From positions 64,001 through 128,000 of the IMG/VR virus record IMGVR_UViG_3300021431_000003: a DNA stretch of 64,000 nt; one strand, given 5' to 3'. Position numbers and translations under genes: made by a program. Under the pieces are notes generated by a model. That model saw only the letters and a program-made list of their open reading frames with translations. It was not told the DNA's origin and made no database searches. Positions 289-40,820 of the stretch are shown here, in pieces (the first letter of the stretch is position 1; each line of letters begins with the position of its first letter). This stretch comes from a virus. Lineage: Duplodnaviria; Caudoviricetes.

Positions 289-467
289 TTATTCCGAAAA
301 CAAAAACATTTTCACCTCCTTATAATATTTTGAGCATTTCCTCGTCCATCGGAATGTCCAAATAATTTATTTTTCTAGTGGAAGTTAAACCACCAGAATT
401 GGTCATTGTCCTTGATGACAATTAAACGTACGTTGTCGTTAGTAGTCATTTCTTTTCTTATTATCAT
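289..467 (-). other. Small-ORF cluster (30-aa ORF 467-375; 6-aa minigene 309-289)
   Basis: AGGAGA RBS before ATG467; TAAGGAGGTG RBS before ATG309 (MFLFSE*); early-type promoter upstream. Confidence 0.45.
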
Positions 468-10300: not shown

Positions 10301-13300
10301 CTAAACCTTGACCGACATTCTTAACAACTGTCCATACCATAGGAATAAGATTCTTACCTATACCATAAAGAACCTTTGGCACAAAGTCACCATATACAGT
10401 AACGAAACCAGTCTTCCAAAGTTCTACAATATGAGCTCCAACCTTAGCAAGGCTATTCCAGAATCCGCTAAGACCTCTATCTGGTGCAGCATATTCTCCT
10501 TCATTATGAATCCAATTATGAACCTTCTCAAATTTAGATTTAAAGAATTTTCTAATAGGATTAACGATACCAGAGATTATACCACCCTCATATTCACCAG
10601 TAGTTTTATTCTTGACACCAAAGATTTTATCTTTAGCTTTAGCAAGCCATGGCTTAACTTTTTCACGAATCGCAGGTAATATATCTTCTTTAATGAATCC
10701 TACTATTAATGGAACGAATACACCGCCAACAAATAGCCACTTGATAATCTTACCAATCTTAGAATCCTTCTTACCTTCAAAATTCTCTTTATCTTTTCTT
10801 AATTGTCTAGCATCCATTCTGTCGAAGAATCTACCGATAAAAGTATCCTGTTCTTGGTTCTTTTCTTTCCACGCTCTTACAGCATCAAGCTTACCTGCAA
10901 CAGCATTTCTAATACCAGATTTAAGAGTACCAGTAACAGATTTATATCTATCAGAACCTACTACTTTTTTAATAGCACCTCTCATAAATGTCTCTGTTAA
11001 AGAAGCTTTACCATAACCGTATCTAGCATAGAATCTACCATTAACTTTATTTTGTTCTTTAGCATCTAGTTCGTTGTATTTCTTACCATACAATTCAAGT
11101 GATAATTCATCAAGTCTTTCATCTTTATTCTTGATAGCAAGAGATATAACTTTATCTCTTTTAGCATCAGATGCCTTCTTTTTAATTTTTTCTTTAGTAT
11201 CATTAGCCCAGTCACTTACCTTAGCTGCAGCGGTTCTAATACCATTATTTATTTTATCTCTTACACCTTGAAGCTTAGATTGAACTCCATTTCTGATATT
11301 ATCAGAAATGCTATTCATAAGTTTCTGATATCTACCATCAATGAATCTTTCAACAAATACTGCATGAATTGCTTCTTGTTCTTTTTCAGTTAAGTCTTTC
11401 CAAAGAACATTATTTTCATGACCATTCTTACCAGCATATAGTTCTTTTACTAATTTCTGCAGTTCTGGACCTGCTTCTGGTTTAGCATCTTTATTATTAG
11501 AGTCAATTATAAATAACCTAGACCAAGCATATTCAGCTTTTCTCTTTAGATTCTCTCTGACTTTCTTCATTCTTTCTTCTTTAGTACCTTCAGCATTATC
11601 ATTAAATAAGATATTACCAGTACCTTTAATAAGTTTGATGGTTTGTCCTAGTTTACTTCTAACAAGACGTTTACCGATTTGCTTGATACCACCAATTATT
11701 CCACGACCGAATACTTGGTTTTCTTTCTTAGCTTGGATGTACATATTAACAAATTCATCATGAACTTGTTTTTGTTCATCCTTAGTACAAGCACTAAATC
11801 TACTTACACCAAGATTACATCTTTTTGTAATAGCATCAAGGAATTCAAACTTATCAGCTAATTCTTCTTTAAGCTTATTTTGAACCTCTTCGCTAGCTGT
11901 ATTAGCACTTCTTAGTGCTTCTAATGCAGATTGGTAAGAAGCTACTTCCTTATTCCATTCTTTTTCAGCTTCTTGTTGATATTGATAATTATTAAGTCGC
12001 TGAATCAAGGAATTATCATCAATCTTATGGTCACTTAAAGCAAGACCTACATTAAATCCTATCTTCTTTACACCTTTAATAGCACCACTGATAATAGACT
12101 TACCATGGGTTCTAATAGCATCCTTTACAAATAGAGAATGGATACCTGTAAATTTTGGTAAATCTGGCATAACAATAGGATTCATATATACACCAAGCTT
12201 AAGAGACTTAGCTATCATATCACCGAAAGACATGTAACTATCTTCTATAGTCTTTGGTCTATGGTCAGCAAGATAATCCTCTATGAATTGACGTTTAGCT
12301 GCATCATAAGATACAGGTTGACCTTTTCCAGGAATAACATTATAGCCGTCTACTTTATAATACATTTCAAAATTATAAGGAGTTTCTCCACGATAGATAA
12401 GAATCTTACGTTTCATTACCTTAATCTTCTTGACAGCTTCTTCTTCACTGCATTTTTCTTTATTCATTATCTTCTGCTTATATGTCTGAATATCATCTCT
12501 AATTCTTTCAGGAACACAGAGTTCTTTCAATGCGAGACCATCAAACATTTGACAAGCAGTATCAATTAATTCATTTATTTCATTATTAAGTACATTAGCC
12601 ATTCTAGTATCAGGAGCTAAATAACCCTTTAAGTCACCAGTAAGCATTGGAATATAATCATTCCAAAGGTCATTAGAAATAAAGTCACCCGCCTTAATAG
12701 AGTCTTTATTAATAGAACCTATCTTATCATTCTTACCAATAACATAACCACCATTAGCAGCATTTTCTTTAATAGCTTTTTGTGATCTAGAATCCTTTAC
12801 AGATTTAATATAAGCTTCTTTAGAACCATACTTAGCTTGTTCTTCTTTGGATAACTTGTCATATCCATTACCAATTGTTAAATCATAGTGGATGTTTTCA
12901 AGTATTTCTTCCATCCTTTTAGCTGCAGTATTTACAGTTTCAAGAGGAGAATCTTTACCCTTCCAGAAAGCTTTTTCTGCCTCAAAAGCAACTTCTTCAT
13001 CTGTAAGGCCTACACCTTTATGAGCTAATTCACGATTAGCCATAAGTTTAAGATTTCTAACAGCCTTCTTATCTCTAAGGTCTACATTAATACCCTTAGA
13101 TAATAAGTATTGCTGTACAGTCATCTTACTTCTCTCAATATCTTTATAATCTTTAGATGCTTTATTCATTTTATCTCTATGAAGTCTTAATTCCTTCATA
13201 ACAGATTTCTTAGTAGCATTATCGATGTTTCTAGTATTCAAGAATCTTTCAACATCTTTGTCTCTACCTTCTTTAAGCATCTTAATGATTCTTTTAGCAT

Positions 13301-37537: not shown

Positions 37538-38485
37538 TTAGAAACGATTTATCTGGTCTCCGATAACTACAACCTTCCAAGACTGACCAATATTAGTATT
37601 AGATGCAATACCAGTACCAAAGTCAATACTTGTATCATCTAACAATCCTCTATCTGGTCTTGGATAATTAGGAACTGGCATACCAGTAGATGTATCAATA
37701 ACATCAAACATCTTATCACCAGTATTAGGGTCATATACCACAACAGTTTCGATATTAGGATTATCTCCTAAAATCATACGATTCTGCTCTGGTGTGAGAT
37801 TACTCATGAAGTTATTAAAGTTCTGCTCTTCATTTGCTGGTACTGCATTCATACCAGACATAAGAGCACCCATATTACCAGCTACATTAGCAGAAGTATA
37901 CTGAAGTGCTGGATGTTGTGCTGCTCCGATAGGTGTATTAATATATGCATTATAAAGATCTGCAATATATTTATCATCATCTTGCTGATTTGCTGCAGCA
38001 GATTTAATGTCTTTAATTCTACGAATTTCAAGTTCATGGCACTTTGTCTTTACAGCGTTAATTTCCTTAATAGCAGAAATCTTAGAAGAGACAAGAGAAC
38101 TTGCTGTAGCACAAAGATCGGAGATATACTTGTACTTACCTTTTAAAGTCTTACTTCCTCTGATATGGTCAATCTCTCCTTTAACATCACCAGCAAGAAT
38201 ATCAAGCTGAGCGATAGATACTCTGAGCATATCATTAGTCTCTTCATATGTATCTTCGTATGGTTCATTAGTCTGACACAAAGGTAAACCAGAAGAATTA
38301 CTATTAGATTGAACTACTGTAACTTCTCCTCCATTTTGTTCAGACTTTCTAGGTCTTCCTCTTTTCCTTTTAGGTGGTTCTGCAATTGGATTTTCTACAA
38401 CGGGAGCAATTGCATTCTGAGTATCATTATCTTCTGGAATCTTAGCTCCTCTAGCTAAGACCTCCATATCTAAAAAGCTCTTCAT
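37538..38485 (-). CDS. AT-hook-containing protein
   Basis: PPKRKRGRPRKS (GRP core) then coiled coil; late promoter 38513-38524. Confidence 0.7.
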   Translation of the reverse strand: MKSFLDMEVLARGAKIPEDNDTQNAIAPVVENPIAEPPKRKRGRPRKSEQNGGEVTVVQSNSNSSGLPLCQTNEPYEDTYEETNDMLRVSIAQLDILAGDVKGEIDHIRGSKTLKGKYKYISDLCATASSLVSSKISAIKEINAVKTKCHELEIRRIKDIKSAAANQQDDDKYIADLYNAYINTPIGAAQHPALQYTSANVAGNMGALMSGMNAVPANEEQNFNNFMSNLTPEQNRMILGDNPNIETVVVYDPNTGDKMFDVIDTSTGMPVPNYPRPDRGLLDDTSIDFGTGIASNTNIGQSWKVVVIGDQINRF

Positions 38486-38564
38486 ATTGATTTCCTCCTT
38501 CTATGAGCATTTTATAGAAATGTTTTTGACATAAATGCTTAATAGGGTATGTTAACATTTAGAT

Positions 38565-38698
38565 AAGATGGTATTTAGGCCTCCATTTATACCATCTTAC
38601 GGTTGAAGGGCATGAATGATTTCCTCTTTGATGCATTGTTTATTCCTCTGAGAAGTCCTCCATGGTATCGGGGCCATGGAGGACAAACTTTATTTTTT
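38565..38698 (+). ncRNA. Candidate small RNA 2
   Basis: Late promoter 38554-38565, hairpin TAAGATGGTAT/ATACCATCTTA with CCTCC in the loop, terminator stem 38655-38684; no upstream + strand gene for it to terminate. Confidence 0.6.
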
Positions 38699-38709: not shown

Positions 38710-38721
38710 AACAAATATATA
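38710..38721 (+). promoter_or_regulatory. Late-type promoter
   Basis: AACAaatataTAa upstream of the DNA polymerase N-terminal subunit. Confidence 0.65.
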
Positions 38722-38771
38722 AATGACTCAGATAACGTAATACGTAAGCTGAAGAATTGGAGGTTTTATAT

Positions 38772-40820
38772 ATGAAAAAATTCGATAATGATTTGTTGAT
38801 TGGTAATTATCCTCCTGGATATGACTTAGCATTGTTTAATACAATCTATCATTATCCACAGAAGGATAATAATGGAAAATGGAGACCTGGAGTAATTGAC
38901 CTTATTATTAAAGATAATGAAACAGGAGAGAAGTTTCTTGAAACTATTGTAGACCCGTTATATGAGTATTATATGCTTAAACCAGATGTAATGGTACCGA
39001 GTTACAATCTTGAATATGCAATGATAGATGACTGTAAGTGTATATTAGCACCTTATGGTCAACTTCAGAAAGATATTGCTGAACGTCTTGGAGAGCTTGA
39101 TAAGTTTTGGGAAAATATTCGTAACGGTAATAGAGAAGCAAATAAACGTTTGTGTAATTATCATCCTGCAGTATTAATGTCTGATATGGATATTGAAGAT
39201 AATATTCGTTTTCAGTTCTCACACACTTATGCTAATACGTATAAGAAAGCTTCGAAGTCTTATCTGGATATTGAGGCAGATACAATTCATTGTAAAGGTG
39301 ACTTTGTAGAGATGGGTGAGTGTCCGATTAATGCGGTATCATTTATTGATGACCAGTCATTAGTTATTCATTCATTCTTGTTGAGAAATGATGAGAATCC
39401 ATTGATTACAGAATTTGAAAAGATGGCTAATACACCAACAATGGAAAGTGAATTAAAGTCATTTTTAATAGATGCAGTTGGTGGTCCAGCTAATGCTGAT
39501 AAGTATAAAGTAAATCAGATGAGAGTACAATTCCATTTCTATGATGAGAAAGATGAATTAACAATGCTCAAGCATCTGTTTAATTATATTAATAATCTGA
39601 AACCAGATTTTGTATTGGCTTGGAATATGGCATTCGATATTCCGTATATCATTCAGAGAATCATTAATCTTGGTGCTAATCCAAAAGATATTATGTGTAG
39701 TCCAGATTTCAGATTCAAAGAAGTTAAATACTTCATTGATGAAAGAAACGAATTCAATTATGAAGAACGTAATGACTTTGCGAAGATTAGTTCTTATTCT
39801 GTATATCTTGACCAAATGATTCATTTTGCATCTAGAAGAAAAGGACGAGCAGCATTACCGTCTTATAGATTGGATTTCATTGGACAGATGACTTGTGGAG
39901 TTAAGAAACTCGATTATAGTCATATTACTCATAACCTTGCAGAGTTACCTTATAAAGATTATAAGACATTTGTATTCTATAATATCATGGATACAATTGT
40001 ACAGTATTGTATTGAATTCAAATCTGCGGATATTGATTCAGCATATAATAATGTACTTCTGAATAATACACGTTGGAGTAAGATTTATAGACAGACTGTA
40101 TATCTTAAGAATAGACAAGCCATCTTTAATTATAAGAATGGTTTTATTACAGGTAACAATGTAAATGCAAATACACCTAAAGTATCTTTCCCTGGTGCAT
40201 TTGTAGCAGACCCGAAACTCAATAGTGATTATTCAAAGCTTAGAATTAATGGTCGTCCAGTATCTATATATGATAACTTAGACGACTTTGATTATAAAGC
40301 TCTGTATCCGAGTATCACATCCGAATTTAATATGTCTCGTACAACTCTTATTGGTCATCTTACTATACCAGAAAAAGTATATGAATTTGAGAATAGATTT
40401 AATAGAGATGAGATTAAATGGAGAAGAGAAGCTCAGTTTATGGATGATTTACAATCACATAACTGGATTGAATTTTTCCATCGTTGGTTCCATTTTGGCA
40501 GTTATGAAGACATATATGATGATGTAATTGAATACTTTACTAAAGTTAAGTATCCTATGGGTGTATTGACATATCATAATTTTGATGATGTATCTGGTAC
40601 TCCTGAAGAAGATAATCGTAATGTATTTGTTCATTGTTCTACAGCAAGAGATTTACAGATTGTAGATGCTATTGCAAGTAAGAAACTAGATTATATGCAT
40701 CAACCGAGATTTGAGTTTGAAAAGTCTGACTTTAATAACTTTACAGAAATCTTTAATAGTCTTAAGGATGGTTATCTGTATAGTAAACCTAGACAAGTGG
40801 AGGATAGTAACAATGGATAA
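38772..40820 (+). CDS. Split family-B DNA polymerase, 3'-5' exonuclease + motif A subunit
   Basis: ExoI YLDIEAD, ExoII AWNMAFDIPY, ExoIII YNIMD, FPGAFV, motif A DFDYKALYPS; motifs B and C absent. Confidence 0.88.
   Translation: MKKFDNDLLIGNYPPGYDLALFNTIYHYPQKDNNGKWRPGVIDLIIKDNETGEKFLETIVDPLYEYYMLKPDVMVPSYNLEYAMIDDCKCILAPYGQLQKDIAERLGELDKFWENIRNGNREANKRLCNYHPAVLMSDMDIEDNIRFQFSHTYANTYKKASKSYLDIEADTIHCKGDFVEMGECPINAVSFIDDQSLVIHSFLLRNDENPLITEFEKMANTPTMESELKSFLIDAVGGPANADKYKVNQMRVQFHFYDEKDELTMLKHLFNYINNLKPDFVLAWNMAFDIPYIIQRIINLGANPKDIMCSPDFRFKEVKYFIDERNEFNYEERNDFAKISSYSVYLDQMIHFASRRKGRAALPSYRLDFIGQMTCGVKKLDYSHITHNLAELPYKDYKTFVFYNIMDTIVQYCIEFKSADIDSAYNNVLLNNTRWSKIYRQTVYLKNRQAIFNYKNGFITGNNVNANTPKVSFPGAFVADPKLNSDYSKLRINGRPVSIYDNLDDFDYKALYPSITSEFNMSRTTLIGHLTIPEKVYEFENRFNRDEIKWRREAQFMDDLQSHNWIEFFHRWFHFGSYEDIYDDVIEYFTKVKYPMGVLTYHNFDDVSGTPEEDNRNVFVHCSTARDLQIVDAIASKKLDYMHQPRFEFEKSDFNNFTEIFNSLKDGYLYSKPRQVEDSNNG

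Follow-up and report, generated by a model that had tools for sequence, protein, structure and literature searches.

The divergent intergenic region between the gene for a conserved 315-aa protein and the gene for the N-terminal part of a family B DNA polymerase very probably contains a non-coding RNA gene in an uncultured, AR9-like jumbo phage from the gut. The predicted RNA carries two boxes that each combine an anti-AUG, a spacer, and an anti-Shine–Dalgarno (anti-SD) sequence, and it probably acts by pairing with the start regions of messages. On balance, its targets lie mainly in the phage itself and include at least one of two genes, namely the divergent 315-aa neighbour and a 583-aa gene located elsewhere in the genome. 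The window, that is, the whole stretch of 64,000 nucleotides that was analysed, covers positions 64001–128000 of a complete phage genome of 223,528 bases with direct terminal repeats (hereafter G000). Among cultured phages, the Bacillus jumbo phages AR9, PBS1, and BpSp have the DNA polymerases closest to its own, at 31–32% identity. The features of the RNA unit and its surroundings are collected in Table 1.

Table 1. Features of the predicted RNA unit, its flanking genes, and its candidate targets (window positions, except where genome coordinates are given).
Feature	Position	Strand	Remarks
Late-type phage promoter, AACA-N6-TA	38554–38565	+	Recognised by sequence, enrichment before genes, and AR9 consensus; kept in all close homologues
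Predicted non-coding RNA, about 134 nt	38565–38698	+	Folding z of the region −3.2; single copy; predicted transcript
5' hairpin, 10 bp, from +1	38565–38598	+	−11.1 kcal/mol
CCUCC in the hairpin loop	38580–38584	+	Subclade-specific, 5/20 loci
GGUUG motif directly after the hairpin	38601–38605	+	Conserved in many close homologues
Box 1 (anti-AUG, spacer, UUCCUCU)	38611–38629; to 38637 with 3' extension	+	
Box 2 (anti-AUG, spacer, UUCCUCU)	38634–38649	+	
Intrinsic-terminator-like stem, 12 bp	stem 38655–38684; U-tract 38689–38698	+	
Conserved 315-aa protein (divergent neighbour)	37538–38485	−	Candidate target; AT-hook-like motif, coiled coil, small beta domain
Late-type promoter of the divergent neighbour	38524–38513	−	
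Neighbour promoter, 28-nt leader, and start codon	38483–38524	−	Candidate target site
Polymerase promoter (late-type) and conserved leader hairpin	promoter 38710–38721; hairpin 38727–38752	+	
Family B DNA polymerase, N-terminal part, AR9 g132-like	38772–40820	+	Weaker candidate target
583-aa gene	G000:134073 (outside the window)		Candidate target; 31 kb from the RNA unit

The promoter of the unit belongs to a class that is used throughout the genome. The motif AACA-N6-TA is found upstream of 48 of 188 genes, as against 12–27 for other spacer lengths, and this genome-wide use fits an AR9-type late transcription unit. In AR9, the late consensus is AACA-(6N)-TA/G, and the last A of the motif is the mapped start site (PMC5312081). 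The predicted +1 of the RNA is therefore 38565. Because both flanking genes have an AACA-N6-TA promoter of their own, the promoter at 38554 has no gene to serve ahead of the terminator. An earlier, sequence-only reading of this DNA had described an orphan unit here, and its late promoter, hairpin, two boxes, and terminator are all present where it had placed them. That reading had also proposed an Rfam check; a search run up to an E value of 10 matched the predicted RNA to no catalogued family. No paralogue of the unit was found in G000.

The RNA is predicted to consist of two stems that flank an unpaired, pyrimidine-rich middle segment. Hairpins of −8 kcal/mol or better occur at only 4.3% of 299 genic promoters. 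The 5' hairpin had been described as 11 bp long, and it is indeed present, with a stem of 10 bp in the RNA, since an eleventh pair would need base −1. Similarly, the terminator had been given an 11-bp GC-rich stem, which proves to have 12 bp, and its U-tract is offset by 4 bases from the stem. Both anti-SD/anti-AUG boxes were recovered at the positions claimed for them. When the middle segment was shuffled 200,000 times, a pair of CAU-spacer-anti-SD boxes appeared once; the pattern had been chosen post hoc. Alternative pairing of the middle segment is only weak and non-conserved, and the C/U-rich seed is conserved and sits in unpaired regions.

This layout of promoter, hairpin, boxes, and terminator is kept in all 20 close-clade loci used in the tests. 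The close relatives examined comprise the complete genomes G001–G005, the loci L001, L009, and L179–L182, and 11 of 11 loci fetched later, and their neighbour proteins are about 64–98% identical. The middle segment stays pyrimidine-rich throughout and contains one anti-SD box or two, with CAU usually ahead of the first. Both stems keep pairing through compensatory changes. In the 5' stem, two-sided changes affect 3 of 10 pairs and one-sided changes 4 (six sequences), while the terminator stem has two-sided changes at 10 of 12 pairs (ten sequences), part of which is due to register shifts. The loop CCUCC to which the sequence-only reading drew attention is present in this phage and is confined to 5 of the 20 homologues.

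Conservation also bears on whether the unit encodes peptides. The boxes might be the ribosome-binding sites (RBSs) of tiny minus-strand open reading frames (ORFs), or a short sense ORF might be the product; each box does read as SD-spacer-ATG on the minus strand, and a frame of 17–19 aa is common to three relatives. However, the minus-strand frames shift by single-base indels between phages that are 98–99% identical (8, 17, 17, and 16 aa), the box-2 ATG is absent in G002–G005, the sense ORF is missing from most homologues, and no minus-strand AACA-N6-TA promoter lies ahead of the boxes. Small peptides were rejected as the product because these ORFs are lost or frame-shifted even between near-identical phages, which makes a coding function extremely improbable. 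Neither of the short ORFs that had been raised as possible functional products is kept in the homologues. Layout conservation, stem co-variation, and the non-conservation of small ORFs together bear out the proposal of a stand-alone RNA with several boxes.

The same comparisons make it very improbable that the boxes are DNA operators or iterons, without any RNA function, that sit between divergent promoters. Two direct repeats between two divergent genes would suit such sites, but the repeat period ranges from 19 to 24 bases, and some loci have a single box. Moreover, the stems on either side co-vary as expected of RNA, and the one at the 5' end begins exactly at +1.

Candidate targets were sought among the start regions of the phage. 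Pairing energies were computed with RNAduplex plus opening terms, rather than with IntaRNA, on gene calls made in this analysis; accessibility scoring was taken up after plain duplex scoring had failed, with no orthogroup beating permuted labels (p = 0.17). Over all orthogroups, the test showed over-dispersion in both tails. The exact complement of the box core, AGAGGAA, occurs in 0–1 of about 180 phage starts, while GGAGGAA, which pairs with one G-U, occurs in 23–35. The conserved U of UUCCUCU is not accounted for by this pairing, given how rarely AGAGGAA occurs at phage starts. The CAU-bearing flank of box 1 beats shuffled flanks in four of six genomes (0–1 of 40 controls), and that of box 2 has an effect on pairing in one of six. 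Since flank shuffling weakens the best pairings, the fit of box 1 exceeds the SD word. GGAGGAA is kept in at least five of six genomes by only 5 of 128 orthogroups, among them the 315-aa and 583-aa genes, and it is with the starts of these two genes that box 1 and its extension are predicted to pair.

The 315-aa neighbour is a clade-wide core gene (512 homologues) that usually lies divergent from the polymerase gene. The protein has no PHROG, Pfam, PDB, or Atlas family, and there is a weak hint of a small terminase (score 0.82, 13% of members). Its structural model has a pLDDT of 67 and matches only uncharacterised viral proteins, one of them from AR9; another weak structural match, a 301-aa entry, may be g169 of phiR1-37.

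In G000, the predicted duplex between the RNA and the neighbour start is about −22 kcal/mol and reaches nearly to the predicted 5' end of the mRNA. With accessibility scored, the neighbour ranks 9, 4, 57, 25, 22, and 48 in G000–G005, respectively (9 of 191 in G000). Visual comparison had shown a resemblance between the neighbour start and box 1 with its 3' flank in all six of these genomes. A test set in advance compared the pairing of each RNA with its own neighbour start and with those of its relatives. On held-out loci (n = 14, comprising eleven new loci and the already-seen L179–L181), RNAs paired better with their own neighbour start (anchored p = 0.0008, free p = 0.0009). The same test gave p = 0.0065 without short and near-duplicate loci (n = 11), and p = 0.002–0.055 with one locus per similarity cluster, kin among the tested loci not being independent. 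The controls, which were two downstream genes, the neighbour coding sequence, and the reversed RNA, gave no signal. Within the six complete genomes that formed the discovery set, the neighbour co-variation was not significant (p = 0.2).

Box 1 is itself a degenerate direct repeat of the neighbour start (38483–38503), 125 bases apart on the DNA. Consequently, homogenisation or gene conversion between these repeats could mimic the co-variation with the neighbour. The repeat also lends something to a purely cis-acting interpretation, which holds that the unit is a leader or attenuator of the polymerase gene, or an insulating promoter–terminator pair, and that the boxes are by-products of local duplication. 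The unit points towards the polymerase gene, and the offset U-tract makes read-through possible. Such an element is nevertheless distinctly unlikely. Downstream of the terminator, the polymerase gene has a promoter and a leader of its own, the folds show no conserved antiterminator, and similar units are found reversed at the same site and elsewhere in distant phages. Local copying would also leave the fit to the 583-aa gene, 31 kb off, unexplained.

The start of the 583-aa gene is the top match of the RNA in G000, with −36.8 against a mean of −19.5 (sd 4.2), and its G-U-tolerant helix of 16 bp with the box 1 region is the longest among 191 starts. Plain duplex energies across the relatives did not confirm this gene. 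With opening energies, its mean z over six genomes was −2.47, while the best-of-all values of shuffled-flank controls were −1.76 ± 0.22 (0 of 27), a control that ignores sequence shared among kin. It ranks 2, 1, 8, 2, 9, and 52 in G000–G005 when unbiased windows over the whole RNA are used, and first of 127 orthogroups in the five relatives with G000 left out and accessibility scored. The fit resides in box 1 in G000, G001, and G003, and in box 2 in G002, G004, and G005; G004 and G005 share a changed spacer in the target and a matching change in box 2. The own-versus-relative test for this gene gave p = 0.06, and in distant phages the fit fails (ranks 57, 23, 129, and 12). In its operon, which has a late-type promoter, this gene comes second. 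Its protein carries weak hints of PF12322 (T4_baseplate), seen in 16% of one Atlas cluster and, at an E value of 0.011 that is below the cut-off, in one homologue.

The polymerase gene is a weaker candidate. Co-variation of the RNA with its start was detected at p = 0.015 (p = 0.005–0.09 across held-out sets and subsets) and was absent in the six complete genomes. The loop CCUCC could pair with the polymerase SD, a weak match of −13 kcal/mol that ranks 34 of 197. The leader hairpin of this gene is of separate interest. Its core palindrome (ACGT-N3-ACGT or a variant), just before the SD, is kept in close and distant relatives, and TACGTA-like words precede the G000 genes at 12325, 24061, and 42069. 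The position of the hairpin is reminiscent of the translational operator of T4 gp43.

The sequence-only reading had foreseen a trans-acting RNA that blocks initiation on host or early phage mRNAs. Its anti-RBS part has some backing from target co-variation, for which the neighbour tests and the accessibility-scored rankings were positive and the plain-energy, all-orthogroup, and own-versus-relative tests of the 583-aa gene negative or marginal. The proposed early targets were not borne out: matches showed no early bias (57/350 versus 70/396, p = 0.63, on rough promoter classes), and the top candidates lie behind late-type promoters.

The real targets could instead be host mRNAs, or many starts at once, with the RNA serving as an anti-SD decoy that aids host shut-off. 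The boxes do look like the complement of a consensus start region, and AGAGGAA, which would complement their core perfectly, is rare in the phage. One relative, a complete phage of 212.7 kb (L175; CAADXH010000018.1), lies inside the metagenome-assembled genome 'Bacilli bacterium HGM10607', which is either a host hint or a binning error, and apart from the phage contig this bin contains about 100 GGAGGAA-spacer-ATG sites. However, box matches in the bin, which is not proven to be the host, were not enriched (12 versus 8 in the control), and no extended match was found. Five short bin-family matches were examined, and none lies in a CRISPR-like array. Host-only targets, moreover, would not predict co-variation with a phage gene start, and a host-directed role is unlikely.

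Units of similar layout also occur in more distant phages. A loose screen scored 13 of 53 distant loci as having an orphan promoter–terminator unit at this site (one being a tRNA gene), and 8 of these 13 carry anti-SD plus CAU, several in the opposite orientation. They share only the layout, since neither a profile nor a covariance model (a weak one, with 5 pairs only) reached the distant same-site units or AR9. Neither phiR1-37 nor AR9 has such a unit before its polymerase gene.

These distant units bear on a further possibility, namely that the RNA is real but binds a protein, as a sponge or scaffold, through GGUUG and the pyrimidine boxes. GGUUG is conserved and is not accounted for by the predicted duplexes, and the U of UUCCUCU is retained although a C there would give better pairing. 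Against this, anti-SD plus CAU recurs at this site in distant phages within sequences that are unrelated, and the flanks of the boxes track the target starts. Because of this recurrence and tracking, pairing is favoured over a fixed protein motif, and protein binding as the main role is quite improbable.

Several other small units came to light in the same survey. In the distant phage L269, the corresponding intergenic gap is taken up by a gene for tRNA-Met(CAT) (330–405, minus strand) that has a late-type promoter of its own; this site is thus a hotspot for small RNA genes. L020/L300, L286, L291, and L296 have a different orphan RNA of 180–210 nt upstream of the 315-aa homologue, reversed, with anti-SD/CAU boxes and a related GC-rich terminator stem. 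In the gap between the 308-aa gene and the polymerase gene of L020, the strand opposite this reversed RNA holds a 54-aa ORF, hydrophobic with a basic tail, that starts from one box. The layout resembles a type I toxin–antitoxin system, and the ORF is probably due to chance in AT-rich DNA. Outside the window, G000 contains a second orphan unit of about 74 nt with an UUUCACAC motif (G000:12182–12255, plus strand), which is also found in G001–G003. Further orphan units with at least one anti-SD plus CAU box lie at G008:166493 (minus strand), G008:47738 (plus strand), and G007:25367 (plus strand). Lastly, a promoter-plus-hairpin leader of 50–190 bases (L102:3990–4185, equal to G004:143990–144185) occurs in about eight copies in G004, with weaker instances in G005, G002, and G006; it probably represents an early promoter whose structured leader is shared.

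The predicted RNA has several counterparts among known regulators. It is most readily compared with the CiaRH-dependent csRNAs of Streptococcus (PMC3091779), which it resembles in having two stem-loops, an unpaired middle with anti-SD and CAU, a similar size, and its own promoter and terminator. The csRNAs, however, are driven by CiaR through TTTAAG repeats, while the RNA here has an AACA-N6-TA phage promoter, no such repeat, a single copy, and no Rfam match. LhrC of Listeria, RsaE, RNAIII, SprD, and FsrA (PMC4132741) likewise use redundant C/U-rich sites that occlude the SD, in a first loop and a single-stranded stretch. The present RNA differs from LhrC and other UCCC-motif RNAs in its UUCCUCU core without UCCC, its single copy, the lack of a site in the terminator loop, and its viral origin, and the Rfam models of the LhrC and RsaE/RoxS families do not match it.

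Among phage RNAs, c4 of P1 and P7 (PMC12197685) also blocks a phage ribosome-binding region. It acts in the immunity of temperate phages, whereas the targets proposed here are core genes in a jumbo phage that has RNA polymerases of its own; the c4 models of Rfam do not match this RNA, and no ant-type target was among the top candidates. The small RNA upstream of the tail gene gp182/gp277 of phiKZ and 201phi2-1 (PMC11512511) is similarly a position-conserved jumbo-phage RNA, but it is derived from a 5' UTR, and the portion of that source drawn on here describes no target or anti-SD feature for it. An experimental analogue, not a homologue, is found in AR9 itself. The late start at 75478, listed as antisense to g090, has the second-highest step in Table S3 of the AR9 study (PMC5312081). 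Its transcript is very strong and structured, with an exposed anti-SD word at the 5' end; it shares the promoter class of the RNA described here, but has another site and layout and no similarity by the model built here. A literature search found no publication on this RNA family. The family appears to be uncatalogued; its functional kind, a trans-acting anti-SD small RNA, is already known, and the evidence for its targets, though stronger than is usual, is statistical.

Overall, the evidence tips slightly towards a base-pairing, trans-acting small RNA that trims a limited set of the phage's own messages. We infer its transcription, in vivo pairing, repression, timing, and purpose as follows. 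The non-virion phage RNA polymerase would make a 134-nt RNA, in which the +1 hairpin and the terminator would frame an unpaired middle with two UUCCUCU boxes. The 5' stem may protect the RNA end, as would be expected from the 5'–3' decay that operates in Firmicutes. The boxes would seed on GGAGGAA-type sites through one G-U pair and extend across the spacer and AUG. Such pairing would block 30S entry and lower initiation on a few core messages, with the 315-aa neighbour and the 583-aa gene as the leading candidates and the DNA polymerase as a weaker one. The likely effect would be that core-gene output is trimmed once transcription by the phage polymerase is running.

A broader and far more tentative proposal is that AR9-like jumbo phages may run a post-transcriptional layer of their own. 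Hairpin-box-terminator RNAs, re-invented in each clade, might tune a constant set of core genes for virion components and DNA handling, with the boxes co-evolving with the RBSs of those genes. Small RNAs of jumbo phages have been mapped before, and the portions of those reports used here (PMC12197685, PMC11512511) do not describe their targets. The family presented here offers named candidate targets and natural compensatory variants in about twenty genomes, and can be examined with reporters without phage culture. If the proposed mechanism is true, a virus that is transcriptionally independent of the host would, in addition, control the dosage of its core proteins by RNA–RNA pairing.
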